This document shows positions 19,928 to 36,745 of a DNA stretch of 64,000 nucleotides, piece after piece; position 1 is the first letter of the stretch, and each line of letters opens with the position of its first letter. The stretch comes from a virus: IMG/VR virus record IMGVR_UViG_3300020079_000009. One strand, given 5' to 3'. A model generated the notes under the pieces. The model was not told where the DNA came from and made no database searches. It saw nothing but the letters and a program-made list of their open reading frames with translations. The position numbers and the translations under genes were made by a program.

Positions 19928-19956
19928 TTGACAAATTAAAAATTTTTTGGTATAAT
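19928..19956 (+). promoter_or_regulatory. rightward promoter TTGACA-N17-TGGTATAAT, divergent from the structural-operon promoter
   Basis: tgTTGACAaattaaaaattttttggTATAAT, followed by RBS GGAAAGGA and ATG 19989. Confidence 0.6.
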
Positions 19957-21987: not shown

Positions 21988-22397
21988 AAAGATTGGGTTC
22001 CGTACCATTCGGTATGGGACCCATTTCTTATTTTTCCCGTAAACCGAAATCTGAAATTGATTTAGTGGGAGGTTTGTCCAGGAAATAACATTTCATCAAC
22101 AATAAAAAAAAATTTTCCCGAAATACACCCCCCCGGGTATGTTGGCATACACAGCACAGGCACACACACAGACAGAGAGGTACGCCCCTCTCTACGCCCT
22201 ACAGAGCTACGCACATGTACATACAAAGAGATACATACACAATGACCAAGAGGTAATGAGTACATAACACATACACATCTATCTATACATACAACAATAG
22301 ATAATAATAATAAATAATAAACAACACAATGATGTACATACTAATACATACGCTGGGCCGTGCATGGATGGCGCGGCCCTGGTTGGCATGGTATACA

Positions 22398-22468
22398 TCT
22401 TGCACAAATAAAGGGCGCAACAATTGTGCAAATCTACCTATTGACAAACCTCCCGAAACGTGTTATAC
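22398..22468 (+). promoter_or_regulatory. class-3 promoter (TTGACA-17-TATACT) with upstream inverted repeat TGCACAA-N16-TTGTGCA (candidate operator)
   Basis: cTTGCACAAataaagggcgcaacaaTTGTGCAAatctacctaTTGACAaacctcccgaaacgtgtTATACT. Confidence 0.55.
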
Positions 22469-22503
22469 TAAGGGTACAACAAAGGAAGAGAGAGGTACAC
22501 ACA

Positions 22504-22839: not shown

Positions 22840-22996
22840 GGGTAGCTACCGTGTGCGGCCCTGCTATCCCTAACTGCCACAGAGCCAGGAGGCACAGAAA
22901 AAAGTCTGCACAAACGTGTAAAAAAAGCTTGACACAAACCTCCTGTAATGGTATAATAAAGATACAAAGAAAGAAGTAAAGAAAGAGGTAGATACA

Positions 22997-23287: not shown

Positions 23288-23517
23288 TGCAGTGTGTGCT
23301 ACTACACACTACTACTAATACTACACTAATACAGAAAGACCGCCATAGGCGCGCGCACGGTCCTGGCGCGCCTGATTGGTGCTATTGTAAAACCTGCACA
23401 AAAAAGGCTTGCAAAATCGGCGTAAATTTGTGTAAAATAAATCTCCCAAAACCCTTGACAAAATACCTGCGCGCATGGTATACTATAGATACAAAGAAAG
23501 AGAGAGAGGTACAACCT

Positions 23518-23772: not shown

Positions 23773-23860
23773 AAAAAAATTAAAAAAGGGGCTTGACAAA
23801 AAGCCCCCTCCATGTTATAATAAAGATACAAAAAAGGAAAACAAAAGGAGACTGATAACT

Positions 23861-24286
23861 ATGATGTGTGCAAGTGAACTGGCAATTGTGAGAAATGCAA
23901 GCGTAATGAAGTGGGAAAAAGAAAAGGCAGAAAGTCTTGCTCGTCTGTTGGGTGCGAGTGTTGAATTCTGTGAAACTGAGATTGGACCTGCCCTTGAGAA
24001 GCAGGCTCTCAACCCTAAGGGTGGACTGATTTCAACTTCTATTGACCTCGCTATGGCTTCCGATGCTTACGGCAACGAGGTACTGCGTCCTATTCGTTTC
24101 GATGGCAAGAAGTATGCAAATGGAGATTGGAGTTATTCTCCTTGCACTGACAAGAACTATCACAAGACTTTCATTGAAGAGTATCTTGCTCAGCATTGTC
24201 TGTCTGTAAGGTGGGAAGAAACTACTTACAATCGCTATGGTTTTGGCTCTTGCCGAGCTTACAAACTGATTGTTGAAGTAAAGTAA
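23861..24286 (+). CDS. hypothetical protein
   Basis: Class-1 promoter at 23794-23821 with -35 inside the GGGGCTT...AAGCCCC hairpin; RBS AAGGAG; ATG 23861. Confidence 0.45.
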   Translation: MMCASELAIVRNASVMKWEKEKAESLARLLGASVEFCETEIGPALEKQALNPKGGLISTSIDLAMASDAYGNEVLRPIRFDGKKYANGDWSYSPCTDKNYHKTFIEEYLAQHCLSVRWEETTYNRYGFGSCRAYKLIVEVK

Positions 24287-24365
24287 AAAAATGCAAAAAG
24301 GGGTTGACAAACTCAACCCCTTGTGCTATAATAATTACAGAAAGAAACAGAAAGAAGTGGTAAAA

Positions 24366-24698
24366 ATGGCTTACGGATGTTATTCAGAAGTGTATTACGC
24401 AGAACATTTAGAAATTAGAACGGCAATCAAAATTGGGGAAACGACTAATGCAAGGCGTAGAAGTAATCAGTTGCTCCAAGAAGATTATTTAATTCTTCAA
24501 TCATTAGACATTGGCGGCGGAGAATGCGAAAGGCTATTTGTAGAAAGTTTTTTGCGAATGAAAATTCTAAAAACACAAAAGGCTCGGCGCATTCGCAAAG
24601 ATTATTTTAATTGCGCTGATCTTGATACAGTAGAATTTATTAAATCTCACTTTCAAGAGTGGGTAATGGAAGCAATAACAACAATGAGGGGAATGTAA
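24366..24698 (+). CDS. T5orf172/GIY-YIG-like domain protein (putative)
   Basis: Motif IKIGETTNARRRSNQL resembles the KIGxT...R..QL core of the T5orf172 (GIY-YIG-related) domain. Class-1 promoter at 24304-24332. Confidence 0.4.
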   Translation: MAYGCYSEVYYAEHLEIRTAIKIGETTNARRRSNQLLQEDYLILQSLDIGGGECERLFVESFLRMKILKTQKARRIRKDYFNCADLDTVEFIKSHFQEWVMEAITTMRGM

Positions 24699-24770
24699 AA
24701 ATTCCCCTTGACAATCAATTAAAATTATGGTATAATAATAATACAAAGAAAAGAAAAGGAGATAGATACA

Positions 24771-24980
24771 ATGGGTGAAGGTTGTTTGATGGTAATTCTC
24801 GCGCTGGCACTGGTGTTCGGCGTTGTGTGTTTCGAGGCATGGATTGGGATGCTTCTGTTTAACTGGGTGATGAGCCTGTTCGGCTGTGCGTTTGCTCTAA
24901 CATTTTGGCAGGCTTTCGGCATCTGCGCTCTGCTCAGTTTTGTAGGTGGCTTTTTCAAATCGAGTTCCAAGAGCAATTAA
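24771..24980 (+). CDS. small hydrophobic membrane protein
   Basis: 69-aa, two TM segments; class-1 promoter at 24709-24739; followed by intrinsic terminator 24983-25011. Confidence 0.45.
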   Translation: MGEGCLMVILALALVFGVVCFEAWIGMLLFNWVMSLFGCAFALTFWQAFGICALLSFVGGFFKSSSKSN

Positions 24981-25011
24981 GGAGAGGGGAAACCCTCTCT
25001 TTTTATTTTTT

Positions 25012-25130
25012 CGGCCGCGCGCTGTCGGCTGTGGCGCGCGGTGTTTCTGCCAAGAGGTAATCTGCACAAAAATCTCGTGGAAAATTTGTGCAATTTTGTG
25101 CTTGACAAACATCCCGAAATGGTGTATACT
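25012..25130 (+). promoter_or_regulatory. class-3 module: GC-rich hairpin (25012-25041) + operator TGCACAA(25063)-N16-TTGTGCA(25092) + promoter TTGACA(25102)-17-TATACT(25130)
   Basis: Coordinates worked out by hand; the half-site TTGTGCA is repeated a third time right before the -35. Confidence 0.55.
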
Positions 25131-25160
25131 TAAGGTACAAAAGATGAGGGGGTAATAACT

Positions 25161-25343
25161 ATGATGATGAACATTACTATTGACAGACCTTGGAGCGAAC
25201 AGCCTGAGGAAGTACGCAACGCAATCGACGAACAGACTTACAACAAGGTTGCTGAGGTTCTCGGCATTAAGTTGGTAAGTCGCAAAAAATGGTACGAAAA
25301 GGTATTGACAAACATCTCAAAGTATGGTATACTTAGAGCATGA
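25161..25343 (+). CDS. small hypothetical protein (3' end overlaps the next promoter)
   Basis: Class-3 promoter at 25102-25130, RBS GAGGGGG. C-terminal codons ...EKVLTNISKYGILRA are encoded by a TTGACA-17-TATACT promoter. Confidence 0.35.
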   Translation: MMMNITIDRPWSEQPEEVRNAIDEQTYNKVAEVLGIKLVSRKKWYEKVLTNISKYGILRA

Positions 25344-25359
25344 AAGGGGGATACTAAAG

Positions 25360-25683
25360 ATGAAACCTATGAATACTACATTCCACGCAGGAGTGGAACG
25401 AGCAAACCGACTGCAAGCATTGGAAGAAGTTCTCGGCTTCACAAACCCTGTGCTTGAAGTTGAAGTAATTGAAGAAGAAAAGAGGTACTTGCTAACCAGT
25501 AGTGGAATTATCATTGTTAAGAATTTGTATCGTGACATTGTGATAACTGCATTTATGGCAAATGTCAATCAGTGCTATCGTCTTTACAGAATGGCGGGCA
25601 AGGGGCAGATGTCACCTAAAATGGAAAAGCGAGTAATGAAAAATTGTCAAAGACATCCAGAATTATTTACGATTAGGGGTTGA
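25360..25683 (+). CDS. hypothetical protein
   Basis: RBS AAAGGGGGA, ATG 25360 (MKPMNTTFH...). Confidence 0.4.
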   Translation: MKPMNTTFHAGVERANRLQALEEVLGFTNPVLEVEVIEEEKRYLLTSSGIIIVKNLYRDIVITAFMANVNQCYRLYRMAGKGQMSPKMEKRVMKNCQRHPELFTIRG

Positions 25684-25741
25684 CAAAACCCCTAAGCCGT
25701 GGTATAATAATTACAGAAACCAAGAGAGAGGAATTGATACT

Positions 25742-26155
25742 ATGAAGAAATTAGTAAACCTTAGATGCTATGCGGCAATCGGCAATGATGACTACTGCGA
25801 CACTTCCATTTGGAATCACATTCGCTATGTGGAAGTTGGCGAGTGTAACACGACAGAATACACACTCGAAACCTTTGAAGAAGCATTTGCGGCAGTTCGT
25901 GACCACAGAATCAGAAATGCAGAAACTGGTTGCACTCTATTTCGCAATCGTCCGACCATCGAAATTGGTTGGGGCGACTTCTACAGAAACAAAAGCAAAA
26001 TGACAGAAAAGACTTTCAAGCCCATTCGTGTCAGGTGGGAATGGGAAGAGGTTACAAGAATGTACACAATGAAAGACCTTGCGGACTTGCTCCCTGCTGA
26101 ACAGTTCTGCGAATGGTTGAAAGACAGAGGGATTACAATGGTTGGCTCGATGTGA
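25742..26155 (+). CDS. hypothetical protein
   Basis: Class-1 promoter at 25680-25708, RBS GAGAGGAATTGATACTATG. Confidence 0.45.
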   Translation: MKKLVNLRCYAAIGNDDYCDTSIWNHIRYVEVGECNTTEYTLETFEEAFAAVRDHRIRNAETGCTLFRNRPTIEIGWGDFYRNKSKMTEKTFKPIRVRWEWEEVTRMYTMKDLADLLPAEQFCEWLKDRGITMVGSM

Positions 26156-26262
26156 GCCAACCGCCCGTACAAAATAAATTAAAAAAGTTTTGAAAAACCT
26201 ATTGACAAACCCACGAACCTATGTTATAATAAATACAGAAATTGAGAGAGGAATTGATAACA

Positions 26263-26937
26263 ATGAACAAGAAAATTATTTACTGCACACTTGATACTGA
26301 AACTGTTGGCGGAGCTTCTAATCCTACTGGAATGTACAACCTCGGTTGCACTATCCACGACAGAGAGGGCAACATTTTCGCAACCGCTTCTCTGCTTGTA
26401 ATGGAACACTATGACGAAATCGCACAGGACGATTACGCAAAGAAGAACTTCCCTATCTATCGCGAAAGACTGATGACTGGCGAAATGTCTGCGGTGGCTA
26501 CCGAAGCCGAAGCACTTTCCATCGTTCGCAACCTTTGCAAGTTCTATGGTGTTCGCTATGTAATGGCTTACAACTCTGCTTTCGACTTTACCAAGACTAT
26601 TTGCAGAGAACTGCTCGACGAGTTTGAGTTCATCGACATTTACTTGATGGCTTTGCAGACCATCTGCCACAAGAAAGGCTTTGCGAACTTCTGCCACGAG
26701 AATGGCTTCCAGTCCTCTTCCAAGAAGTCTTGCTCTACTACTGCACAGACTGTCTATGGCTTCATCACTGGAAATGCTGACTACATCGAAGAACACACTG
26801 CACTGGCTGACGCACTCATCGAAATGGAAATCTTTGTGGCTTGTCTGAAAATGCACAAGAAATTCAACAAGAACATTCACCAGTGGGACGCAAAGGGCAG
26901 AGAGTACAACAAGTGCTTTCCGAAGTGGGTGGACTAA
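26263..26937 (+). CDS. DEDDh 3'-5' exonuclease (DnaQ/RNase T-like) paralog 1
   Basis: Exo motifs YCTLDTETVG (Exo I D-x-E), AYNSAFDF (Exo II), HTALADALIEMEIF (Exo III with His). Class-1 promoter at 26203-26230. Confidence 0.7.
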   Translation: MNKKIIYCTLDTETVGGASNPTGMYNLGCTIHDREGNIFATASLLVMEHYDEIAQDDYAKKNFPIYRERLMTGEMSAVATEAEALSIVRNLCKFYGVRYVMAYNSAFDFTKTICRELLDEFEFIDIYLMALQTICHKKGFANFCHENGFQSSSKKSCSTTAQTVYGFITGNADYIEEHTALADALIEMEIFVACLKMHKKFNKNIHQWDAKGREYNKCFPKWVD

Positions 26938-27048
26938 GTCCCCCACTTTCCCCGGTCAAAAAAAATAAAAAACTTTTCAAAAACCTATTGACAAACACGA
27001 AAATCCATGCTATAATTAAGATACAAAAAAGGAAAGGAAGTAAACACA

Positions 27049-27498
27049 ATGAAGACTATGAACATCACAATCAACTTTGACATGGACGGCACAATCGCTG
27101 ACCTCTATGGAGTAGAAAACTGGCTCGAATACCTCATCGCAGGCGACACATTCCCTTACGCAAACGCAAAGCCTCTGCTTAGACTTGCAACTCTCGCTCG
27201 CAGACTTAACACTCTCCAGAGAAATGGCTACAACATCGCAGTTATCTCTTGGCTGAGCAAGAGTGGCACAGAAGAATACAACAGAGCAGTTACCGAAGTC
27301 AAAATGGATTGGCTCAAGAAACATCTGCCAAGTGTCAACTGGAACGAAATCCACATTGTACCTTACGGCACACCAAAGCAGAACTTCTGCAAAACTCCTC
27401 TCGATGTGCTTTTCGATGATGAAGAACGCAACAGAACAAACTGGACTGGCAAGGCTTATGATGTGCAGAACATCTTGGAAATTCTCGCAGAAATGTGA
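27049..27498 (+). CDS. HAD-superfamily 5'(3')-deoxyribonucleotidase-like hydrolase
   Basis: N-terminal HAD motif I FDMDGTIADLYG (DxDGT) and overall NT5C-like size; class-1 promoter at 26988-27016. Confidence 0.6.
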   Translation: MKTMNITINFDMDGTIADLYGVENWLEYLIAGDTFPYANAKPLLRLATLARRLNTLQRNGYNIAVISWLSKSGTEEYNRAVTEVKMDWLKKHLPSVNWNEIHIVPYGTPKQNFCKTPLDVLFDDEERNRTNWTGKAYDVQNILEILAEM

Positions 27499-27571
27499 GA
27501 ATTTCCCCTTGACATTTTCAAACCGTTGTGCTATAATTTAATTACACCAAGAGGAAAGGAACTGATACCCC

Positions 27572-27790
27572 ATGATGATTAACACGAATGAACCCACTTG
27601 CCCCACTTGCGGCGGCTCCCTCATTTCTATCTCACACTACGATGTTGAAGACCTCGACACAGGCACAATCGCAATGAGCGTGGTCGGTGGCTGTGACCAC
27701 TGTGGCAACACCTATGAATGGGTTGAGTATTACGCCTACAAGGGTCACGCAGACATCAAGCCCACCCAAATCAGGGCGAGAGCAATTTGA
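27572..27790 (+). CDS. small zinc-ribbon protein
   Basis: CPTCGG...CDHCGN pairs; class-1-like promoter at 27505-27535; terminator at 27776-27805. Confidence 0.45.
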   Translation: MMINTNEPTCPTCGGSLISISHYDVEDLDTGTIAMSVVGGCDHCGNTYEWVEYYAYKGHADIKPTQIRARAI

Positions 27791-27805
27791 CGCTCTCGCC
27801 TTTTT

Positions 27806-27958
27806 GGCGCGCCGCCCACGACCCAGGCGGCACGAATTTCCATTATAACACTTCCTCAGCATTTTGTCAATAGGCAATTTGCACAAAGTTGCGAGAGGTC
27901 AAATTCCTGAAATTTGTGCATTTTGACTATTGACTTCTATTGGGGAGTGTGTTATACT
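27806..27958 (+). promoter_or_regulatory. class-3 module with divergent promoters: GC hairpin 27806-27834; antisense promoter (minus strand) -35 at 27865-27870 and -10 at 27842-27847; operator TGCACAA(27880)-N27-TTGTGCA(27920); sense promoter TTGACT(27930)-17-TATACT(27958)
   Basis: Reverse complement reads cctaTTGACAaaatgctgaggaagtgtTATAATgg, a perfect class-1 promoter firing leftward into the GC hairpin and the preceding gene terminator. Confidence 0.5.
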
Positions 27959-27964
27959 GTACTT

Positions 27965-28055
27965 ACAGATGAGGGGTGAGGTTTAATGCTGAGCCGCTCA
28001 AGCAGAAAGGGTTCAAACCCCTTGGGGGACGCCCCTAAAAGCCCCTCATCTTTTT
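27965..28055 (+). ncRNA. candidate ~90-nt small RNA (or leader with tiny ORF) from the class-3 promoter, enclosed by a long-range stem GATGAGGGG...CCCCTCATC plus U5 terminator
   Basis: The gene-less transcript begins GTCAG-type conserved start, has internal hairpins, and ends in a T-run at 28051-28055; only an in-frame run-on ORF (27986) with no independent support. Confidence 0.35.
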
Positions 28056-28144
28056 CAAAAAAAATAAAAAAAGTGCTTGACAAACGGTCAATGCGGTGCT
28101 ATAATAAAGATACAAAGAACGGAACAGAAAAGGAGACAGGAACA

Positions 28145-28633
28145 ATGACTAAGGGAAACGCAATCAGATACTACAGAAAGTTTAGTGGCGCACAGGGTTA
28201 CATCCTCGGTTTCACTTACAAGAAGAAGAACTACATGGCAATCGTTGATGAAATCATGCCTCGCTTCATTCGAGTAGAAAAAGAAGCAAGCAAAAAGGGT
28301 GGCAAGGAAAAGCTTCAGCTTCGACTGACTAATCAGCACATGGAACAGCTCATTCGCAAGGGCGCAATCGAAATCGACTACGAAGTAACCAACGGCAACA
28401 ACGGCAGAAACTTTGAAATGTGGGTACAGAGATACTTCGGTCAGGTCGCAAGAGATTGGGATAATGACGGCTTTTGGGTTGGTGGTGATGTCAATGTGAA
28501 CGGCATTGAGTATCAAATCAAATTCAACGGCGCACAGATTGTCACTTTCGACACTCTCCACAATTTGCAGAAGTGTGGCAAGGACTACAAAAACTATGTG
28601 CCTAAGCGTGGCAGAAAGAAAAAAGTTGCCTAA
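28145..28633 (+). CDS. hypothetical protein (162 aa)
   Basis: Class-1 promoter at 28078-28106, RBS AAAAGGAGA, ATG 28145 (MTKGNAIRYY...). Confidence 0.45.
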   Translation: MTKGNAIRYYRKFSGAQGYILGFTYKKKNYMAIVDEIMPRFIRVEKEASKKGGKEKLQLRLTNQHMEQLIRKGAIEIDYEVTNGNNGRNFEMWVQRYFGQVARDWDNDGFWVGGDVNVNGIEYQIKFNGAQIVTFDTLHNLQKCGKDYKNYVPKRGRKKKVA

Positions 28634-28687
28634 GGGGGTTGACAAACCCCCAAAGGTATGCTATAATAATACCAAGAGGTGAGATAA

Positions 28688-28849
28688 ATGAAAAAGAAGA
28701 AAACCATTGACAATCGCATTTTTAAGAAAGAGGGCGAAGAACTGCAACAGTATTTGCACTTTCGCAAGCGTGGGTCGGTAGTCGAGAACAAAAAGGGCAA
28801 AGGCTCGTACAATAGAAAAAAGTTCAAGAAAATTGAAAAAGACTATTGA
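28688..28849 (+). CDS. small lysine-rich protein (53 aa); 3' end overlaps the next promoter
   Basis: Promoter gGTTGACAaacccccaaaggtatgcTATAAT, RBS GAGGTGAG, ATG 28688. Not in the ORF track (<60 aa). Confidence 0.3.
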   Translation: MKKKKTIDNRIFKKEGEELQQYLHFRKRGSVVENKKGKGSYNRKKFKKIEKDY

Positions 28850-28907
28850 CAATTAAATAAAAATGTGGTATAATAATTATAGAAAATAAAGAAAAGAGGT
28901 TGTTACT

Positions 28908-29153
28908 ATGAAAATGTTTTCCGAAATGAGTTTGAAATCTATCCGCAACAAGTTGGCAAAGGTTGGGGTCACAATGAGTGACGAGCAGTTCAATGCTCTT
29001 ACCTACTCCGAGTTGAAGAAAGTCTATCGCAAGGCGAGCAAGGCTTACAAACTCTATGAGCAGGTTGATGCAATCATCACCAAAGCACAAGCTCCCACTC
29101 CGCAGATGCCCTTGACCAATGACAGTCCCAAGAGCGTAAGCGCAAAAAAGTAA
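28908..29153 (+). CDS. hypothetical protein (81 aa)
   Basis: Class-1 promoter at 28846-28875, RBS AAGAGGT. Confidence 0.4.
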   Translation: MKMFSEMSLKSIRNKLAKVGVTMSDEQFNALTYSELKKVYRKASKAYKLYEQVDAIITKAQAPTPQMPLTNDSPKSVSAKK

Positions 29154-29228
29154 AAAATGGGGGTTGACAAACCCCCAAACCTATGCTATAATACAAGTAC
29201 AAACCAAAAGAAAAGGAGAATGATACTA

Positions 29229-29381
29229 TGAGTATTCGAGAAGTAGCAAATGCACTGAATGAGATTCGCGCAAACATGAGCAACCCCGAAGGTATGGTGG
29301 TTGCGTCCATCACAAAGGACGAAGTCATTTTTGAGAATGGGGTTGCCTATTCGCTGACAACGAAGCAGAGAACGCGATAAG
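29229..29381 (+). CDS. small hypothetical protein (50 aa)
   Basis: Class-1 promoter at 29165-29192, RBS AAAGGAGA, ATG 29229; terminator at 29385-29412. Confidence 0.3.
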
Positions 29382-29429
29382 GAAGAGCGAGGGGAAACCC
29401 TCGCTTTTTCCATTTCAAAATCCAAAATG

Positions 29430-29590
29430 CATCGGCCGGTCCACGTGCGCGCGGACCGGTGTTTTGGCCTAACCTTCCATTATAACATTTTTCGAGCAAT
29501 TTGTCAATAGGCAAAATGCACAAAGATTTTCCTGTAATTTTGTGCAATTTGCCACTTGTATTTTGGTGGCTGATGTGGTATACTATTATT
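29430..29590 (+). promoter_or_regulatory. class-3 module (GC hairpin CCGGTCC..GGACCGG, antisense promoter, operator TGCACAA-N16-TTGTGCA, TGGTATACT promoter) not followed by a gene
   Basis: Same architecture as 27806-27958; downstream transcript ATTATTGTCAGTAAGGGAGAG... has no ORF before the next class-1 promoter. Confidence 0.5.
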
Positions 29591-29639
29591 GTCAGTAAGG
29601 GAGAGAACAAAATCCCATCAAAAAGATTTTGAAAAAACC

Positions 29640-29870
29640 TATTGACAAAATAAAAAAATTATGTTATAATTATTATAGAAAAAAGGAAAAAGCCATTACC
29701 AAAAAATTTCTAAAAAAGTTTTGAAAAAGGTATTGACAAATCCTAAAGAGTATGCTATAATAGTTATACAAGGTAAGGGAAAACCTACTGAGAGGTCAAC
29801 AAAAAAAATAAAAAAAAAGTTGAAAAAACCTCTTGACAAACAACTCCCAATGTGCTATAATAAGAATGTA
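29640..29870 (+). promoter_or_regulatory. three tandem class-1 promoters (TTGACAAA-N16/17-TGnTATAAT) separated by <60 nt with no intervening ORFs, upstream of paralog A1
   Basis: ttgacaaaataaaaaaattatgtTATAAT; ttgacaaatcctaaagagtatgcTATAAT; ttgacaaacaactcccaatgtgcTATAAT. Each is preceded by an AAAAAAGTTTTGAAAAAACC(T/C) UP-like element. Confidence 0.55.
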
Positions 29871-29937
29871 AAGAGGGACACCTCTTACAGAATAAAAACT
29901 TGGGTCGTGACCTACCACGAGATTGGAGATTGATACT

Positions 29938-30297
29938 ATGGCAAACACTAAGAAGATGACTAAGCGTGAGATGTTCGAGCAGATTAAGGCTTCCTACCCT
30001 CTGACTGAGGCTGAGGTTGAGTTCATTGACCACGAACTCGAACTGCTCGCAAAGAAGAACAGTGCCGAGAAGAAGCCTACCGCTGTGCAGGTGGCTAATG
30101 AGGGCATTAAGGGCGACATTGTCGCAGGTATGGAGCAGGGTAAGTCCTACACCATCACTGACCTGATGAAGACCATTCCTGCCTGTGCCGAACTGAGCAA
30201 CCAGCGTGTGTCTGCTCTTGTTCGTCAGCTCGTCACTGATGGCGTGGTTGTGCGAACTGAGGAAAAGCGTAAGGCTTATTTCTCCCTCGCTGACTAA
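29938..30297 (+). CDS. winged-helix-like protein, paralog A1 of a triplicated family
   Basis: MANTKKMTKREMFEQIK... is ~75-80% identical to the products of 33663..34022 and 34524..34883. C-terminal TITDLMK..LSNQRVSALVRQLVTDG..RTEEKRKAYFS resembles a winged HTH. Confidence 0.6.
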   Translation: MANTKKMTKREMFEQIKASYPLTEAEVEFIDHELELLAKKNSAEKKPTAVQVANEGIKGDIVAGMEQGKSYTITDLMKTIPACAELSNQRVSALVRQLVTDGVVVRTEEKRKAYFSLAD

Positions 30298-30385
30298 GGG
30301 AAAAAAGTCAAGGGGAAATGCAAATTTCCCCTTGACAACCCCTTTGATGTGTGGTATAATGTAATTACAGAAAGGGGGATTGCCT

Positions 30386-30766
30386 ATGACAGCATCCGAG
30401 AGAGAAAAACTGATTGCCAAGCACATGGGTCTGTTAGGTATCAGCCGAGAGGAAGCCGAACAGTTGGTCGCTGATGATGAAGCAATCGACAAGGGAGCAA
30501 AACTCTTTGAGTTGAGTGCCGAGCAAGAAAAGGCAAGCAAAAAGGCAAGAGCCATTGGAACAAAGACCACCACCACAACCAAGACCACAACCAAGAGAGA
30601 ACGCAAAGCCGACAACGACAAGGCAATGCTGATTGACGAAATCAAGCAAGCCCTTGAGGGATTGGAAAGCATTGAGGGAATTGAGGTTACGAACGCCGAG
30701 AGGGAAATGCTTTTCCACTGCAATGGGCGAAAGTTTAAGGTGGTACTGTCTGCCCCTCGTTCCTAA
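30386..30766 (+). CDS. partner protein B1 (paralog of 35007..35375)
   Basis: MTASEREKLIAKHMGLLGISREEAEQLVADDEAIDKG... aligns with ..LMKNLGISEEEALQVIADDKAIDRG.. Thr/Lys-rich linker. Confidence 0.5.
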   Translation: MTASEREKLIAKHMGLLGISREEAEQLVADDEAIDKGAKLFELSAEQEKASKKARAIGTKTTTTTKTTTKRERKADNDKAMLIDEIKQALEGLESIEGIEVTNAEREMLFHCNGRKFKVVLSAPRS

Positions 30767-30789
30767 CTTGTCAATGGGCGAAAGTCACA

Positions 30790-30970
30790 AACTTTCGCCC
30801 TAATTTTTGTGCATTTTTACCACTTGACAAATCGGGCCGGCTGTGGTATAATGGCCGCCCGTGCACAAGTGCGCGGGCCGGTATTCCTGTCAATAGTTAA
30901 TTTCAACAAAAATGCGGGCGAAAATTTGTGCAAATTGCCTATTGCAAAATCTCCCGAAACGTGGTATACT
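30790..30970 (+). promoter_or_regulatory. class-3 module with two promoters (TTGACA..TGGTATAAT inside a GGCCGGC hairpin, then TTGCAA-17-TATACT) and TGCACAA motifs
   Basis: cacTTGACAaatcgggccggctgtggTATAATggccgcccgTGCACAAgtgcgcgggccgg ... aaaatTTGTGCAaattgcctaTTGCAAaatctcccgaaacgtggTATACT. Confidence 0.5.
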
Positions 30971-30994
30971 AATAATGTCAGGAGGGATAGAACG

Positions 30995-31240
30995 ATGTTA
31001 GAACTGAACCAAGAGGAAAAGAAAGTAATCGAAAAGGTAGTTGACGGAATGACAGAATGCGGTCTGTTCTGCGGTCGGTACGATGCAAAGAATGGCAATG
31101 AGCATTTCATGTATGGGGTGAGCACTGTAATGGAATACCTCGCCTATCTTGTCAGCGATGAGTATGGGGATGAGTTCTCCGATGCTTTTACAAAAAATAT
31201 GATAAAAAGTGAAAAAAAGGTATTGACAAACGAGCATTGA
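30995..31240 (+). CDS. hypothetical protein (81 aa); C-terminus overlaps next promoter (..KKVLTNEH)
   Basis: Class-3 promoter at 30937-30970, RBS GGAGGGA, ATG 30995. Confidence 0.45.
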   Translation: MLELNQEEKKVIEKVVDGMTECGLFCGRYDAKNGNEHFMYGVSTVMEYLAYLVSDEYGDEFSDAFTKNMIKSEKKVLTNEH

Positions 31241-31283
31241 TGTGCTATAATAATTACAGAAAGAAACGAAAGAGGTAAACGCT

Positions 31284-31757
31284 ATGAATACACAGTTACT
31301 TATTACATTTATCATTCTTAACATTCTGAATGTTATCATTCAGACAGTGAAAAGTATCGCCACTGTGAAGTGCGGTAAAGGGGTCGCCGCAATCGTAAAT
31401 GCTGTTGCTTTTGGTCTTTACACAATTGTCACTGTTTACTTAATGTGTGAACTTGACCTTTACTTAAAGGCTGGCATTGTGGCTCTGTGCAACCTTGTTG
31501 GTGTGTATGTTGTTAAGTGGTGCGAAGAAAAGGCACGCAAGGACAAACTTTGGAAAGTTGAAGCAACTGTTCCCCACGAATGGACTGACGCAGTACATTT
31601 TGATTTGAAAGACATTCCCCACAACTATGTGGAAAATGTTGGAAAATATACCCTTTTCAATTTCTACTGTGCAACACAGAAAGAGAGTGCAAAGGTGCGT
31701 GACATTCTCGCACAGTATGAAGTGAAGTATTTTGTGAGCGAAAGCAAGACCCTTTAA
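31284..31757 (+). CDS. membrane protein (3 TM N-terminal + soluble C-terminal domain)
   Basis: Class-1 promoter at 31224-31252, RBS AAGAGGT; hydrophobic N-terminal half. Confidence 0.5.
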   Translation: MNTQLLITFIILNILNVIIQTVKSIATVKCGKGVAAIVNAVAFGLYTIVTVYLMCELDLYLKAGIVALCNLVGVYVVKWCEEKARKDKLWKVEATVPHEWTDAVHFDLKDIPHNYVENVGKYTLFNFYCATQKESAKVRDILAQYEVKYFVSESKTL

Positions 31758-31863
31758 TGGGTCAGCTTTTCGCCCGGGCGCAAAATATTTTTCAAAAACC
31801 TATTGACAAATCAAAATGAAAGTGCTATAATAATTACAGTTGATACGAAAGGATTTGATACCC

Positions 31864-32601
31864 ATGGCTCGCAAGAAAGAATTATTTTTAATCATCGACA
31901 CTGAAACAGCAAACACCATTGAACAGCCTTTGTGCTATGACATTGGCTATGCAATCTGTGACAGACAAGGCAAGATTTACCTTGAAAGAAGTTTTGTGGT
32001 TTCTGAAATGTTCCTCGACCACAAAGACTTGATGCAAAGTGCCTACTTTGCTGAAAAGATTCCCCAGTATTGGGATGACATTAAAAATGGCACTCGCACT
32101 TTGAAAAGCATTTTCAACATTCGCAAGCAAATCCATGAGGACATGAAAAAGTATTCCATTCGCAAGGTGGGTGCTTACAACATGGGTTTTGACAAGAGAG
32201 CATTGAATAATACAATTCGCTATTGTTCTCAATCTCGCTGGCGTTGGTTCTTCCCTTGGGGAACTGATTACATTTGCATTTGGAACATGGCTTGTCAAGT
32301 GGTTCTCAATCAAGTTTCCTATGTAAAATTTGCTTTACAGAATGGTTTAATTAGCGAAAGCGACAACATTCAGACAAGTGCTGAGGCTTGTTACAAGTTT
32401 CTGAAAAAGCAAGTTGATTTTGTGGAAAGCCACACAGGACTTGAGGATGTGAGAATTGAAGTTGAAATTCTCGCAAAGTGTTACGCAATGCACAGAAAAC
32501 TTGAAACTAAAATTTCCCCTGCGTGTTGGAGAATCCCCCAGAGAACACGCAAGGAAATGGACTTGAAAAAAGTTTTCAAAAATAGTGGGGAAAGGGCTTG
32601 A
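31864..32601 (+). CDS. DEDDh 3'-5' exonuclease paralog 2
   Basis: LIIDTETAN (Exo I), AYNMGFDKRAL (Exo II), HTGLEDVRIEVEIL (Exo III); class-1 promoter at 31803-31832. Confidence 0.65.
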   Translation: MARKKELFLIIDTETANTIEQPLCYDIGYAICDRQGKIYLERSFVVSEMFLDHKDLMQSAYFAEKIPQYWDDIKNGTRTLKSIFNIRKQIHEDMKKYSIRKVGAYNMGFDKRALNNTIRYCSQSRWRWFFPWGTDYICIWNMACQVVLNQVSYVKFALQNGLISESDNIQTSAEACYKFLKKQVDFVESHTGLEDVRIEVEILAKCYAMHRKLETKISPACWRIPQRTRKEMDLKKVFKNSGERA

Positions 32602-32659
32602 CAAAAGCCCTCCCCCATGGTATAATGAATACAGAAATTAAGGAAAGAGGTTGATACTA

Positions 32660-32818
32660 TGTTAGAACTTATTTGTCAAATTCCTGACCACATCGGTTGG
32701 GTGCTCGTTGGTGTTGTTGGCTGTCTGTGTGTGCAGATGCTTGGTCTGTTGATTGGTACTACCATCCAGGCAATCAAGGAACGAATTGAAGACCGCAACG
32801 AGGAATGCGAGGGTTAAT
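32660..32818 (+). CDS. small membrane peptide (52 aa)
   Basis: Promoter TTGACAaaagccctcccccatggTATAAT, RBS AAAGAGGT; hydrophobic core; terminator 32806-32832. Confidence 0.3.
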
Positions 32819-32844
32819 CCCTCGCTTTTTTGTTTGAGATTTCA

Positions 32845-33000
32845 GCGCCGCGCGCACGAACGTAGCGCGCGGAATTTACCATTATACCATACCCCGGCAT
32901 TTTTGTCAAGAGAAAATGTGCACAAAGATCGAGAAATAAAAATCCTGTAATTTGTGCATTCTGTCTATTGCAATCTGCTTCTGGATGTGGTATACTATCT
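32845..33000 (+). promoter_or_regulatory. class-3 module (GC hairpin CCGCGCGC..GCGCGCGG, antisense TTGACA-17-TGGTATAAT promoter on minus strand, operator, TGGTATACT promoter)
   Basis: Reverse complement is cTTGACAaaaatgccggggtatggTATAATggtaaattccgcgcgc... Confidence 0.5.
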
Positions 33001-33099
33001 ATGTCAGGTGAGGGGAGCACCCAAGAGGAGCTCAAAAAAACTTTGAAAAAAGTTAAAAAACCTCTTGACAAATAGCGCCGAGTGTGCTATAATAAATAC

Positions 33100-33300
33100 A
33101 GAAGTTAAGGGAAGCGACCCGAAGAGGGAAGCCCACGAGAGCGATGTAAGACTTCCCCCTTGAGCCAAGGCTCTTGCTTCTGACCGCAAGGTGTTCGCGT
33201 TTGCGGTATACAAGTGTGAACCAGTGCCCCAGAGGTTGAAGTAATAGGGGATTATGCGCGATACAATACCTCACACAAAAAAGTCAAGAATCTTGAAAAA
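33100..33300 (+). ncRNA. candidate noncoding RNA 1 (~200 nt, purine-rich, GC-rich relative to flanks) transcribed from the class-1 promoter at 33065-33093
   Basis: No RBS-preceded ORF; GC ~55% versus ~38% background; multiple local hairpins (e.g. ACCGCAAGGTGTTCGCGTTTGCGGT); ends at the next promoter. Confidence 0.4.
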
Positions 33301-33340
33301 AGGTCTTGACAAATACCGCAAAGTGTGGTATAATGATTAC

Positions 33341-33560
33341 AGTCAAGAGGGGAACCTTGACAGCGAAAGCCACCAAGGACAGTGGAAACAGACACGAAGC
33401 GAACTGAAACCCAAAGGATACACGAATCCCAGTAGCCCCCACAGAGCGTGGCAAAGCGATTGCGTGGTGAGGGTAGACTTAGGGCTGGGCCAGCAACAAG
33501 GCTGAGAAGTGGGCGAGTAGCGAAGATAAGAAAAAAAGTCGCGAATTTTTTTCGAAAACC
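33341..33560 (+). ncRNA. candidate noncoding RNA 2 (~220 nt) from the class-1 promoter at 33306-33334
   Basis: Purine-rich, no plausible ORF start with RBS; ends with AAAAAAAGTCGCGAATTTTTTT near the next promoter (33563-33591). Confidence 0.4.
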
Positions 33561-33662
33561 TCTTGACAAATCAAACCCCATGTGGTATAATTAAGATGTT
33601 CCAAGAGAGGAACGAAACTTCAAAAAGGGTCGCAACCAATAGCGAGAAATGGAGACGATACT

Positions 33663-34022
33663 ATGGCAAATGTTAAGAAGATGACTAAGGCTGACTACTT
33701 CCGCCAGATTATGGCAAACTACAACCTCACTGCTGACGAAAAGGCTTTCGTTGAGCATGAGCTGGAGCTTCTGGCAAAGAAGAACTCCGCAGAGAAGAAG
33801 CCGACTGCGGTTCAGGTCGCAAATGAGGGTATCAAGGCTGACATCCTCGAAGCCATGGAGAGTGGCAAGAAGTACACCATTACTGACCTCATGAAGAGTG
33901 TCGATGCGTGCGCTGACCTCTCCAATCAGCGAGTGAGCGCACTGGTGCGCCAGCTGGTTACTGAGGGTTCTGTGGAGCGCACTGAGGAGAAGCGCAAGGC
34001 TTACTTCTCCAAGGTGGACTAA
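33663..34022 (+). CDS. winged-helix-like protein, paralog A2
   Basis: MANVKKMTKADYFRQIM... paralog of A1/A3; promoter at 33563-33591. Confidence 0.6.
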   Translation: MANVKKMTKADYFRQIMANYNLTADEKAFVEHELELLAKKNSAEKKPTAVQVANEGIKADILEAMESGKKYTITDLMKSVDACADLSNQRVSALVRQLVTEGSVERTEEKRKAYFSKVD

Positions 34023-34039
34023 GGGCAAGGGGCGCAAGC

Positions 34040-34270
34040 CCCTCCCTCCCCTCTCTCAATTTTCACTTGACCCCTGGGGTGATTCGCTCCCCTGGGGGTT
34101 TTGTGCATTTTGCACAAAGCGCCGGCCCGGTCACGGCCAGCGTGACCGGAATTTTCCATTATACCACCGGCCGCAAATTTTGTCAAGAGAAAAGTTGCAC
34201 AAAAAATAAAAAATAATTTTCCTAAAATTTGTGCATTTTGACACTTGTATTTTCTCTTGGTCTGTGGTAT
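34040..34270 (+). promoter_or_regulatory. class-3 module: terminator GGGGCGCAAGCCCC, adjacent palindrome TTTGTGCAtttTGCACAAA (34108-34128), GC hairpin CCGGTCACG..CGTGACCGG, antisense promoter, operator TGCACAA-N..-TTGTGCA, TGGTATACT promoter with no downstream gene
   Basis: Near-identical to the 29430-29640 module (duplicated cassette). Confidence 0.5.
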
Positions 34271-34523
34271 ACTATTATTGTCAGTAAGGGAGAGCCGAAT
34301 TGATAGAGGTCAAAAAAAGTTTTTAAGAAATTTCAAAAAACCTCTTGACAAATCCCCCAAGATGTGCTATAATGAATACATCAAAGGGAGAGAGAAGTCA
34401 ACAGAGAGTTGAGAAAAAAAATAAAAAAACTTCAAAAAACCTCTTGACAAATCGCTCAACCTATGATATAATTAAATCATCAAAGGGAAGGAAAACCCAA
34501 CAAACCAGAAAGGAATTGATACT

Positions 34524-34883
34524 ATGGCTAATACTAAGAAGATGACTAAGAGAGAAATGTTTGAACAGATTAAGGCAAACTATGCCTTGAACGCAGACGA
34601 GATTGCGTTCATCGACCACGAGTTGGAATTGCTCGCAAAGAAAAACTCTGCTGAAAAGAAACCTACTGCTGTACAGGTTGCCAACGAAGGCATCAAGGCT
34701 GAAATCCTTGAAGGTATGGAAGTCGGCAAGAAGTACACTATCACAGATTTGATGAAGTCTGTGCCTGCGTGTGCAGAGTTGTCCAATCAGAGAGTGTCTG
34801 CCCTTGTCAGACAGTTGGTAACTGATGGCTCTGTTGAGAGAACAGAGGAAAAGAGAAAGGCTTACTTCTCCAAAGTAGCCTAA
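34524..34883 (+). CDS. winged-helix-like protein, paralog A3
   Basis: MANTKKMTKREMFEQIKANYALNADEIAFIDHELELLAKKNSAEKKPTAVQVANEGIK...; promoters at 34348-34378 and 34443-34471. Confidence 0.6.
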   Translation: MANTKKMTKREMFEQIKANYALNADEIAFIDHELELLAKKNSAEKKPTAVQVANEGIKAEILEGMEVGKKYTITDLMKSVPACAELSNQRVSALVRQLVTDGSVERTEEKRKAYFSKVA

Positions 34884-35006
34884 CTCCCCCAAGGGGGCAG
34901 AAATGCCCCCTCCCCTAAAAGGGCGGTAGAAAAAAATTTTGCAAAACCCCTTGACAGATAGCCTTAACTGTGCTATAATAAGGGTACAGTAAAGGAGTTG
35001 ATAACT

Positions 35007-35375
35007 ATGACAGAACAGGTTGCAAAGCTGATGAAAAATTTGGGTATCAGCGAAGAAGAGGCTCTGCAAGTCATCGCAGACGATAAGGCAATCGACAGGG
35101 GCGAGCGAATGTCCTTCGACCTTTCCAAAGAAGAAGAGAAAGCCGCCAAGAAGTACGCAAATGTGGGCGAAAAAACTGTGAAAACCCCACGAAAAGCGCC
35201 AGTTCGCAAGGAAAATGCGACAAAATCGCAGATAATTGCAGAAATTTCGGCATTTTTGAGCGAAAAAGGCTACGAAATGGTCGAAATCACCAATAAAGAG
35301 CGCCAAATCGCCTTCAAAGTTGGTGAAAATGACTATGAATTGACCCTTGTGCAGAAAAGAAAGCCGAAAAAGTAG
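35007..35375 (+). CDS. partner protein B3 (paralog of 30386..30766)
   Basis: Class-1 promoter at 34941-34969, RBS AAGGAG, ATG 35007. Confidence 0.5.
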   Translation: MTEQVAKLMKNLGISEEEALQVIADDKAIDRGERMSFDLSKEEEKAAKKYANVGEKTVKTPRKAPVRKENATKSQIIAEISAFLSEKGYEMVEITNKERQIAFKVGENDYELTLVQKRKPKK

Positions 35376-35404
35376 AAAAATCGCCCCAAAAGGGCGATTT
35401 TTTC

Positions 35405-35538
35405 GTCATTTTGCACAAAAACCGGCCGTTTTCGCCTGCGGCGGGCCGGAATTTCGTCAATTAGCAGATTCCACAAAGTTTTGGAGCGAAAATTGTGCAA
35501 AATTACCTGTTGACATTTCTCCCGAAATGGTGTATACT
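35405..35538 (+). promoter_or_regulatory. class-3 module (TGCACAAA, GC hairpin CCGGCC..GGCCGG, TTGTGCA, TTGACA-17-TATACT) driving gene 35564
   Basis: cgtcatttTGCACAAAaaccggccgttttcgcctgcggcgggccgg...aaaatTGTGCAaaattacctgTTGACAtttctcccgaaatggtgTATACT. Confidence 0.5.
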
Positions 35539-35563
35539 ATGTATAGAAAGTGAGGGAAACAAA

Positions 35564-35764
35564 ATGGAACAAGTTACGAAGTTTGTACTATCACGATTAC
35601 AACTTGCTGAACAGCGCCCTGTTTCTGCGAGCGTGTTTGAAGCACAAGCCTATGGGGCACTGGTTTACCATTGTGAGTTGAACCCCCAAGATGAAGAAAT
35701 GCTCATTCCGATGTGGGAAGAATGGCAACAAACATTTTGGAAAATAATTTCTGAAACCCCTTGA
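35564..35764 (+). CDS. small hypothetical protein (66 aa)
   Basis: Class-3 promoter at 35510-35538 (TTGACA-17-TATACT), RBS GTGAGGGAAA, ATG 35564. Confidence 0.4.
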   Translation: MEQVTKFVLSRLQLAEQRPVSASVFEAQAYGALVYHCELNPQDEEMLIPMWEEWQQTFWKIISETP

Positions 35765-35822
35765 CAAACCCCACAAAGTATGCTATAATAAATACAACAA
35801 AACAAAGAAAGAGGTAGATACT

Positions 35823-36071
35823 ATGATGAAGATTTCTGAGATGATTGCAATGCTGTCTGAGGTTATGGCTGACCATGGTGACAAGGAAGTTATCCTTGTG
35901 AATGATGCGACTGGTGAAATTCGCTATGCGTCTGGCATGACTGTTGACCTCGTTGAGGGTACTGTCACTATCGACCACATTTCCTATGGTGAAAAGCAGG
36001 AAATCGAAGCAGGTCTGGCTATGATGGAAGTGATGGCGAACATCATGGCGATTTGTGGGGGTAAGCAGTAA
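35823..36071 (+). CDS. hypothetical protein (82 aa)
   Basis: Class-1 promoter at 35762-35790, RBS AGAGGTAGATACTATG. Confidence 0.4.
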   Translation: MMKISEMIAMLSEVMADHGDKEVILVNDATGEIRYASGMTVDLVEGTVTIDHISYGEKQEIEAGLAMMEVMANIMAICGGKQ

Positions 36072-36337
36072 TGGCTCACATCCACTGCCCTATGAATGGT
36101 TGGGACTGTCCTTACTACAGCGACAGTCCCATCCCCTGCCAGTGTACACTGGATGACCCTATGAATGAGTGCGACGACTTCGCTGTCTTCTGGGACCCCG
36201 ATGATGATTACATCTGTCACGATGAGTGCCGAGGTTGTTCTACTTGCCACAATGCCGACCAAGATACGACCGACAAGGTGGCTTGCTGTAACTGCTGTGA
36301 AAACCATTCCTTTTATTCCCCTGCGTCCGAGGTGTAA
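36071..36337 (+). CDS. Cys-rich small protein (multiple CxxC)
   Basis: Start overlaps the upstream stop (ATGG); 14 Cys in 88 aa. Confidence 0.4.
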   Translation: MAHIHCPMNGWDCPYYSDSPIPCQCTLDDPMNECDDFAVFWDPDDDYICHDECRGCSTCHNADQDTTDKVACCNCCENHSFYSPASEV

Positions 36338-36374
36338 AAACCTCGGATTTTTTATTTTTGTTTCAAAAAACACT

Positions 36375-36745
36375 TGACAAGTGCGCCCGGGTATGGTATA
36401 ATAATAGTAGGTAGAGCGGGCCCTGGACGGAGGCCAGGTACCGAATTTCCGATCGGTACCCCCATATGCGATTTTTTCGGTGGAAAGTGCGGCCCTTCCA
36501 TATGCGTTCAATTTCCCGTAAAACCCGGCCGCCGATCGGTTCTTGTTTTCCCGATCGGTTCGCACCATATGACCATCCTGGCCGCAAAATCTTAATTCAA
36601 AATGCCTGGTTTCGGGCTCATATCGCCGCGTTTACATCTTCTCACGAGTTTGTGTTCAGCCCGAGAAAAATTTGACATTTTGAATTAAATTTGATATAAT
36701 ATAAAAAAAGGAGTCATTGCCGATCGGGACGCGCACCGACCGCAT
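36375..36745 (+). ncRNA. candidate ~300-nt structured noncoding transcript from promoter TTGACA-N17-TGGTATAAT (36375-36403); contains three CCGATCGG and three CCATATG palindromes
   Basis: No ORF >20 codons with RBS; GC-rich; local stems (CCTGGACGGAGGCCAGG, GGTACCGAATTTCCGATCGGTACC, TTTCGGGCTC...GAGCCCGAGAAA). Confidence 0.35.

Follow-up and report, generated by a model that had tools for sequence, protein, structure and literature searches.

The question raised by the locus described here is why a virus should place what looks like one and the same regulatory unit before gene after small gene. The locus lies in a 64,000-nucleotide (nt) stretch of DNA from IMG/VR virus record IMGVR_UViG_3300020079_000009 (the window; coordinates are counted from its first nucleotide). 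A sequence-only reading had described there, between 23790 and 36410, about 28 copies of a class-1 promoter, the -35 hexamer of which is in many cases embedded in a G/C hairpin, and had proposed that these hairpins terminate leftward transcription and so insulate each gene. The computational analysis reported here points elsewhere for the hairpins: it was found that their position follows the stop codon of the preceding gene and not the promoter. We consider it likely that the region is the early module of a large tailed phage, rich in ORFans and composed of repeated regulatory cassettes that operate in the manner proposed below.

Promoters of the probable early gene block

The strict pattern TTGACAAA-N15-18-TATAAT had 27 matches in the 64-kb window and none in 100 dinucleotide-preserving shuffles. 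Strict copies inside 23790-36410 comprised 21 on the + strand and four on the - strand. A consensus scan of 21.5-37.5 kb returned 33 sites at which both hexamers are perfect (12/12), the spacer measures 17 bp and the -10 hexamer is preceded by TG, and the relaxed pattern TTGAC[AT]-N17-TATA[AC]T was found at 38 sites between 22441 and 36672, of which 34 are on the + strand and four on the - strand. Nearly all of these relaxed-pattern promoters precede small + strand open reading frames (ORFs), with 34 in about 14 kb or roughly one for each gene, and both their orientation and their distance to the Shine-Dalgarno (SD) sequence and ATG are constant across the early block; the cassettes are absent from the - strand structural module. 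The initial description needed adjusting on three points, one of which concerns the start context (see below). The class begins outside the range first given, at 22929, and four of the 25 strict copies inside that range (27870, 29507, 32909 and 34186) point leftward and belong to another module.

When the 29 + strand TATAAT promoters of the window were aligned on the -35 hexamer, the consensus read aaaaa......aAaaAa.TT..AAAAAcc.c TTGACAAA..c....a..TgTG.TATAAT aAa.AtA.aaa.aaaga. An UP-like upstream element had been claimed for a number of these sites and was recovered there, as an A-tract/T-tract/A-tract in the aligned promoters that spans roughly -57 to -40; it is present at 26202, 26988, 29642, 29733, 29833, 31803, 33065, 33306, 33563, 34345 and 34444, amongst others. 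In the hairpin-type cassettes the A-tract is shifted further upstream or is missing. The UP consensus reportedly selected by Estrem and colleagues in 1998 is nnAAAWWTWTTTTnnAAAAnnn, at -59 to -38, and the AAAAAAGTTTTGAAAAAACCTA before the -35, with its T-tract at about -49 to -46 and its A-tract at about -44 to -40, appears to depart from that consensus by no more than 1 nt. The 17-bp spacer ends in a TRTG -16 element and is followed by the -10 hexamer, an AT-rich discriminator and a pyrimidine-purine start (A); TRTGnTATAAT matches the -16 element of the extended -10 promoters that Voskuil and Chambliss are said to have described from Gram-positive bacteria in 1998. These are almost certainly promoters of the sigma-70/sigma-A type, one per small gene. 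No relevant report emerged from a search of the literature for TTGACAAA in phages.

On its gene content the window is a phage genome. Between 1 and 19.9 kb, genes on the - strand have PHROG matches to portal, terminase and virion proteins and to a sigma factor. In a tblastn comparison the portal shows 53% identity to a phage scaffold from human faeces that carries no annotation, 38% to phAss-1 and 30% to the Enterococcus phages EF1/VRE9. Hosts within the Clostridia have been assigned to the phAss-1 group, in a study where promoters are not discussed (PMC10607447), and the host of the present phage is probably of the Firmicutes/Clostridia type. A megablast search of the whole region against GenBank phages gave no match, hence there is no annotated close relative. 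The + strand block that adjoins the structural genes consists of 29 small genes carrying the cassettes. For most of the early proteins searched, family assignments (Pfam, PHROG, NCBIfam) are absent, the exceptions being an NT5C-like nucleotidase, two exonuclease-like paralogs and three winged-helix paralogs; a PDB sequence search and NCBIfam gave no matches for early proteins. Rfam returned two tRNAs elsewhere at the gathering threshold, and nothing credible between 29.5 and 37 kb at E<=1.

The match to a sigma factor PHROG (18801-19853, - strand; phrog_5767, E=3e-53) raises the alternative that the motif is read by the phage's own sigma-like protein, in which case the promoters would be middle or late. 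We regard this as very improbable, given that the motif is the textbook primary-sigma consensus with all of its accessory elements, that the sigma-like gene itself lies behind such a promoter (19907), and that the genes served are small ORFans, the structural genes being without the motif. Three promoters outside the early block, at 3558-3586 (-), 19879-19907 (-) and 19928-19956 (+), share the spacer (G/T)AAAAATTTT(C/T)TGGTATAAT, and two of the three, arranged back to back, diverge from between the sigma-like gene and the genes of the + strand.

Hairpins and stop codons

Six hairpins centred on the -35 hexamer are present in the window, compared with 0.29 +/- 0.55 after shuffling of the flanks. 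They lie at 23788-23807, 24298-24322, 25673-25695, 28634-28651, 29158-29177 and 32593-32611, within a few bases of where the sequence-only reading had placed them, and two further hairpins, at 24687-24708 and 30307-30336, abut the -35. Two protein queries retrieved 49 related viral loci (36+13) on contigs of roughly 130-200 kb, and in these relatives 88 -35-centred hairpins were found against 4.3 expected, a roughly 20-fold enrichment over shuffles. The inverted repeat is sharply centred on the -35 in 80 family promoters, and all 92 distinct hairpin sequences retain perfect pairing.

Eight hairpins of the window lie at or abut a -35 and eight lie at gene ends, and tabulation of the junctions demonstrated that almost every gene closes with one GC-rich hairpin on or just past its stop codon. 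With intergenic gaps of 54-88 nt, the hairpin and the following -35 overlap; with gaps of about 107-111 nt, the hairpin is found at the stop codon and the UP-like element lies downstream of it; and promoters located within the upstream ORF have no hairpin. On the reading proposed below, the -35 comes to lie in a hairpin loop only because the short gaps make the gene-end hairpin and the next promoter overlap. Across the family, 125 of 219 hairpins contain the stop codon and another 71 start no more than 20 nt past it (196 together), the median hairpin position shifts with the stop from -116 to +4, and -35-centred hairpins occur solely where the stop is within -30 to +14 of the -35. In 76 family promoters, including four in the window (28849, 25683, 32601 and 35764), the stop codon is the TGA of TTGACA itself. 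The earlier observation that promoters are encoded in the ends of preceding ORFs was borne out, in that 25161-25343 and 30995-31240 read ..VLTN.., and 28688-28849 ends in ..IEKDY with its TGA in TTGACA. Orthologous junctions retain the hairpin, but its position and sequence differ.

Which strand folds was addressed with stems that contain one internal non-Watson-Crick pair. With duplicate hairpins removed, and with a base composition that would slightly favour A·C, G·T pairs on the + strand outnumbered A·C by 32 to 6 (p=2.4e-5), and amongst the -35-centred stems alone by 12 to 1 (p=0.003). As G·U is tolerated in RNA, the fold has been selected in the sense RNA. The same count for GC hairpins downstream of leftward promoters was 3 to 0, from a few cases only.

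Precise centring of the inverted repeat on the -35 would also suit a function at the level of DNA, either as a cruciform that sequesters the -35 in a supercoiling-sensitive manner or as a palindromic protein site over it, and hairpin promoters are used by some phages, for instance by the virion RNA polymerase of N4. The chance of this appears very slim. It is the stop codon, not the promoter, that explains where the hairpin lies; many hairpins are far upstream of the promoter; the 92 stem variants argue against a sequence-specific protein site; and a G·T pair on one strand corresponds to an A·C mismatch on its complement, hence the strong wobble bias does not suit a cruciform, which needs both arms.

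The original proposal for these hairpins was that an A-run preceding them makes each a leftward (antisense) intrinsic terminator. Five or six hairpins of the window are indeed followed by a T-run on the - strand and resemble terminators there (23811-23784, 24322-24298, 29177-29158, 30336-30307 and 32616-32588). Leftward consensus promoters exist at 27870, 29507, 32909 and 34186, and transcription from those at 29507 and 32909 would meet such a hairpin after one small gene. The A-run is not, however, specific to hairpins, with 4.86 A per 9 nt beside the stem against 4.64 in promoters without a hairpin, and a T-tail is missing from both strands in 65% of the -35-centred hairpins and in 77-82% of the remainder. 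At least six T in eight on the - strand were found beside only 4-11% of the other gene-end hairpins, and hairpins follow the stop codon even where it is 50-150 nt from the promoter and no A-run is present. Leftward promoters of the family mostly reach the terminator-like hairpin of the neighbouring gene after 40-85 nt, four of about 40 first meeting a -35 hairpin, and the wobble bias runs opposite to that expected from selection on - strand RNA. Leftward termination is thus unlikely to be what these hairpins serve, and this part of the sequence-only reading is not upheld. Termination in the sense direction fits poorly as well: a + strand T-tail follows 1% of the -35-centred hairpins and 13-21% of the gene-end hairpins further upstream, unlike intrinsic terminators.

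Leader and start context

The promoters are followed by a polypurine leader of about 20-35 nt, which contains AAAGAGGT, then a spacer of 7-8 nt, most often (A/T)GATACT, and then the ATG; in its full form the start context reads AAAGAGGT-N-GATACT-ATG (GAGGT-N-GATACT-ATG). All 29 early genes have an SD sequence, 7-9 nt upstream of the ATG. The sequence GATACTATG occurs 13 times in the window against 0.42 expected, and each of the seven copies in the region includes a start codon. A conserved leader and ribosome-binding site (RBS) had been claimed, with an invariant start context; the leader is indeed common to these genes, but the context is not invariant, as the 29 early starts include seven exact copies of GATACTATG and about seven close variants. 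In the family, TGATACT is the commonest 7-mer before an ATG (53 of 553), and TGATACA was counted 21 times. Bacillus leaders of the polypurine or Stab-SD kind (SP82 early RNA, cryIIIA) stabilise messenger RNA (mRNA) in B. subtilis through ribosome binding. They resemble the present leaders, by analogy only, in being short and purine-rich with a strong SD near the 5' end.

The leader, and GATACT in particular, might instead be the recognition site of a phage post-transcriptional regulator, such as a translational repressor resembling T4 RegA or an endoribonuclease resembling T4 RegB, through which the early genes would be shut off jointly. The excess of GATACTATG, the placement of every in-region copy over a start codon and the rank of TGATACT are consistent with such a site, as is the fact that GATACT is common to two promoter classes, class 1 and a TTGATT class (43450, 44649 and 47160), and is rare as a context in structural genes. 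Against it, GATACT is variable, about half of the early starts using other spacers; the context also precedes the portal gene (13726); the SD-to-ATG distance that it gives is an ordinary 7-8 nt; no RegA- or RegB-like protein was identified; and shared ancestry or the exchange of whole cassettes could spread GATACT without any special function. We consider this reading possible but rather unlikely. A broader version, which we would put at a somewhat lower chance still, is that the hairpins at stop codons, together with the leader, both of them common to two promoter classes, form a code for a global post-transcriptional switch of the phage, which would stabilise, process or silence all early messages together; its candidate regulators would be the winged-helix paralogs that lie behind tandem promoters, or an ORFan.

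Conservation and shuffling amongst related phages

Each 20 kb of related locus carries 12-30 such promoters on the gene strand and two to five on the other, and the approximately 50 related contigs hold 683-916 distinct promoters, depending on the set. An extended consensus from 645 promoters outside the window reads aaaaaa.tt.aAAAAA..tc upstream and aAatatAtaAaaa downstream, and the same consensus was obtained from each of 11 genomes taken separately. The order of the conserved early genes differs widely amongst relatives.

In comparisons of relatives that are 88-99.5% identical, the interval from -40 to +75 around a -35 takes in 53% of the block starts and 47% of the block ends, against 20% of random positions. 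Block starts peak 0-20 nt upstream of the -35 and ends peak 40-80 nt downstream. In relative L024, two cassettes flank an 877-bp insert, at the place where L018 has one chimeric cassette, the left half of which corresponds to the first cassette and the leader to the second. For the window itself, comparison with the 95%-identical L002 revealed a replaced patch, 32905-33055, that lies between two promoter cores. The closest relative by the second protein query (26263-26937) is 74% identical, and for want of a closer one by that query the cassette indels come from comparisons amongst relatives and from the one L002 patch.

Proposed function of the cassettes

We propose that the host primary-sigma RNA polymerase would fire at every cassette immediately after infection, such that each small accessory gene is given its own maximal-strength promoter and a strong, uniform translation start. 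A cassette would consist of the promoter, the polypurine leader with its SD and, in about 40% of junctions, a GC stem-loop without a U-tract at the preceding stop codon. Each gene thus looks like a self-contained unit with its own promoter, leader and RBS, in keeping with the insulated units envisaged at first. Transcripts from an embedded promoter start downstream of the hairpin, therefore the stem-loop could form only in sense read-through RNA from promoters further upstream, at the 3' end of the preceding cistron, where it would close the upstream message. It may do so as an attenuator of read-through, or as a barrier to 3' exonucleases after cleavage in the A-rich leader, and we tentatively favour the exonuclease barrier, since U-tracts are absent. 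The cassettes may double as crossover points by which early genes are shuffled, inserted and deleted between related phages, as they are conserved over about 100 bp whilst the genes between them vary.

Several observations weigh against this proposal. A perfect hairpin of at least 6 bp was present at 219 of 515 family junctions (about 40%), and four junctions of the window have none. In 34% of the -35-centred hairpins of the family there are at least six A in the eight nt beside the stem, about a third thus looking like leftward terminators. True sense termination is doubtful because the hairpins lack a U-tract, and the stem-loop may be a 3' stabiliser or an attenuator. The explicit example of an indel comes from the relatives L018 and L024, not from the window. 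Cassettes are only marginally more alike within than between genomes (0.415 vs 0.389, and 0.472 vs 0.446), hence their similarity would mainly reflect shared functional constraint, and as cassettes fill almost all of the intergenic space, gene-wise mosaicism alone would put many of the breakpoints there. Furthermore, we infer promoter activity and use, early timing, the effect of the hairpin on the RNA and the fate of that RNA, and a role in recombination, from the sequence.

Comparison with known systems

The closest parallel is provided by the promoter-early stem-loop (PeSL) cassettes of T4-type phages (Arbiol et al. 2010, PMC2839356; Comeau et al. 2014, PMC4122927). The stem-loops of PeSLs take five positions, overlap with the -35 included, have polyG/polyC stems, and have been implicated in modular shuffling; promoter activity, terminator/attenuator activity (for one stem-loop) and mini-circles have been demonstrated experimentally (PMC2839356, PMC4122927). 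PeSLs and the present cassettes are alike in being composites of about 100 bp, with an upstream stop codon in an AT-rich stretch, a sigma-70 promoter, a stem-loop, an SD and an ATG. Both are concentrated in plastic regions of small ORFans, and in both the indel or replacement junctions between close relatives fall inside cassettes. The present phage is of another lineage, however, being large and siphovirus-like with a portal distantly related to those of phAss-1 and Enterococcus EF1; its host is probably Gram-positive, and its promoters carry the Gram-positive TRTG/-16 element. Its stem-loop is tied to the stop codon, usually without a U-tract. No sequence homology with PeSLs is implied. We regard the cassettes as PeSL-like early cassettes, a new instance in a different phage lineage and host type.

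Promoter/stem-loop/RBS cassettes, so far known from T4-type phages of Gram-negative hosts, thus also organise the early regions in an unrelated family of uncultured phages that are large and have promoters of the Gram-positive style, and the likeness points to convergent evolution of one insulated expression unit per accessory gene that doubles as a crossover point. The up to 916 natural promoter variants on about 50 contigs may furthermore serve as a ready collection of leaders, 3' hairpins and Firmicutes-type promoters of very high strength, and the stop-linked, U-tract-less sense hairpins give a testable hypothesis of mRNA 3'-end protection.

A second parallel is the host-takeover module of the Bacillus phage SPO1, together with comparable early regions in other large phages of Firmicutes. 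The host-takeover genes of SPO1 are likewise small and early, with strong promoters and RBSs, and are read by the host sigma-A polymerase before the phage sigma factors (PMC6873191). By analogy, the small-ORFan profile of the present block looks like that of an early, host-takeover region which the host polymerase reads before a phage sigma factor acts. The two systems share a small early gene cluster with strong promoters and RBSs, and a sigma-like protein is encoded here too. Roughly one promoter per gene is present here, and no protein homology to SPO1 genes was found amongst the early proteins searched. We know of no report of stop-codon hairpins or of a shared spacer in SPO1.

Arrangement of the cassettes along the block

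All cassettes in this section are on the + strand. The first, TTGACACA..TGGTATAAT at 22929-22957, serves the ATG at 22997 through a leader that ends ..GAGGTAGATACA-ATG, and lies outside the range first given. In the -35-centred arrangement, promoter 23793-23821 with hairpin 23788-23807 (GGGGCTT/AAGCCCC, the -35 in the loop) begins 16 nt past the stop at 23772 and precedes the ATG at 23861. Promoter 24304-24332 with hairpin 24298-24322 (AAGGGGTTGA/TCAACCCCTT) lies 12 nt past the stop at 24286 (ATG 24366), promoter 28639-28667 with hairpin 28634-28651 (GGGGG/CCCCC) lies 1 nt past the stop at 28633 (ATG 28688), and promoter 29164-29192 with hairpin 29158-29177 lies 5 nt past the stop at 29153 (ATG 29228, GATACT-ATG). 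In two further cases the TTGACA holds the stop codon, namely promoter 25680-25708 with hairpin 25673-25695 (TGA 25681-25683 of gene 25360-25683; ATG 25742, GATACT-ATG) and promoter 32598-32626 with hairpin 32593-32611 (TGA 32599-32601 of gene 31864-32601; ATG 32659, GATACT-ATG).

Hairpin 24687-24708, with the stop TAA 24696-24698 in its loop, abuts promoter 24708-24736 (ATG 24771, GATACA-ATG), as does hairpin 27477-27506, with a 10-bp stem and the stop 27496-27498 inside, promoter 27509-27537 (ATG 27572). The 13-bp stem of hairpin 30307-30336 has a 3' arm that ends in the -35 TTGAC of promoter 30332-30360 (ATG 30386). Gene-end hairpins that are separated from the promoter by an UP-like element were found at 26140-26162 (stop 26153-26155 inside; UP-like AAAAAAGTTTTGAAAAACCTA at 26181-26201; promoter 26202-26230; ATG 26263), at 26923-26948 (stop 26935-26937 in the loop; promoter 26988-27016; ATG 27049, the NT5C-like nucleotidase), at 31748-31763 (stop 31755-31757 in the loop; promoter 31803-31831; ATG 31864, exonuclease-like, phrog_20187) and at 34892-34911 (promoter 34951-34979; ATG 35007). 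Promoter 28846-28874 has no hairpin and its TTGACA holds the TGA 28847-28849 of ORF 28688-28849 (..IEKDY*; ATG 28908); promoter 31223-31251 lies inside ORF 30995-31240 (..KKVLTNEH*; ATG 31284); and in promoter 35761-35789 the TTGACA holds the TGA 35762-35764 of gene 35564-35764 (ATG 35823, GATACT-ATG). Class-1 promoter 28077-28105, with an A-tract upstream, serves the ATG at 28145. Canonical intrinsic terminators, each a hairpin and a T-run, close transcription units at 24982-24999, 27775-27800, 29386-29405, 30776-30800, 32807-32825, 35376-35402 and 36326-36347, and these seven split the region into about eight units.

The three winged-helix paralogs (29938-30297, 33663-34022 and 34524-34883; 119 amino acids (aa), 76-83% identical) each lie behind two or three tandem promoters. 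Three promoters at 29642, 29733 and 29833 (29642-29861), each with an UP-like element and with no ORF between them, lead to the ATG at 29938; three at 33065, 33306 and 33563 (33065-33591), separated by apparently non-coding gaps, lead through the last to the ATG at 33663 (GATACT-ATG); and two at 34345 and 34444 (34345-34472) lead to the ATG at 34524 (GATACT-ATG). An AlphaFold model (pLDDT, the predicted local distance difference test, 82) predicts a C-terminal winged helix, for which the best PDB folds are weak matches to MarR/ArsR/TubR-type regulators (E ~2e-3 to 2e-2). Relatives hold two to five copies of the paralog, and a paralog of 30386-30766 or 35007-35375 usually comes next. The leader of the first copy, 29862-29937, is 81-97% identical at the DNA level in five relatives, above the conservation of the gene itself, and contains two hairpins with compensatory changes (8 of 14 pairs doubly changed across seven sequences); it may act in 5' stabilisation or in autoregulation.

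Class-1-like promoter 36374-36402, directly past terminator 36326-36347, drives 36403-36671, in which there is no convincing ORF. This stretch, 33094-33305 and 33335-33562 each extend for 200-270 nt past a consensus promoter without a convincing ORF. Cores at 33182-33266 and 36417-36477 are kept at 80-93% in several relatives and have no Rfam match, and the stretch 33100-33305 folds no better than its shuffles (z = -0.65). Two small ORFs, 32659-32817 (52 aa) and 24771-24980 (69 aa), encode hydrophobic proteins. The former lies between the -35 hairpin 32593-32611 and the leftward promoter at 32909, the RNA of which would be antisense to it, a layout that recalls type I toxin-antitoxin pairs.

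Other repeated modules

A module of a different class, present at 27772-27975, marks the boundaries of transcription units. It comprises a terminator, a GC hairpin, a leftward promoter (-35 at 27870), TGCACAAA..TTTGTGCA and a rightward TGnTATACT promoter at 27930-27958. Sister modules occur at 22340-22485, 23340-23500, 24978-25145, 29383-29600, 30773-30985, 32804-33010, 34024-34295 and 35373-35555. The general order is a + strand terminator, a GC hairpin of 7-10 bp that varies in sequence with its pairing kept, the leftward promoter, convergent TGCACAAA...TTTGTGCA, 9 nt, and the weaker rightward TGnTATACT promoter. Four modules have the leftward promoter (27870, 29507, 32909 and 34186), four have lost it through deletion, and at 30824 it is inverted; across the family, this promoter is kept together with the hairpin. 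The TTTGTGCA box occurs 18 times against 4.4 expected, all within 22.4-35.4 kb, and the winged-helix paralogs are candidate binders of it. There is a perfect palindrome at 34100-34118. The module may function as a pair of promoters under operator control, or encode a small RNA with two hairpins.

A third cassette class is present on the + strand only, in 14 copies (0 expected) between 36746 and 63704, for example at 43380-43408, 44579-44607, 46975-47003 and 62382-62410. It consists of a terminator hairpin whose T-run forms the -35, TTGATTTTT(T)ATAAAAAATATGTTATAATATATAT(G)TAAGATAAAGAAAGA, and often leads to GAGGT(C/A)GATACT-ATG, serving genes past the early block and the tRNA region. The window also encodes cargo that is unusual for a phage, including a Na/sulfate-citrate-type transporter and a YcaO cyclodehydratase followed by two weak radical-SAM-like proteins (49326-50750, 55156-60806), together with a tRNA-Gly at 62281-62353 and a tRNA-Asn at 63802-63877.

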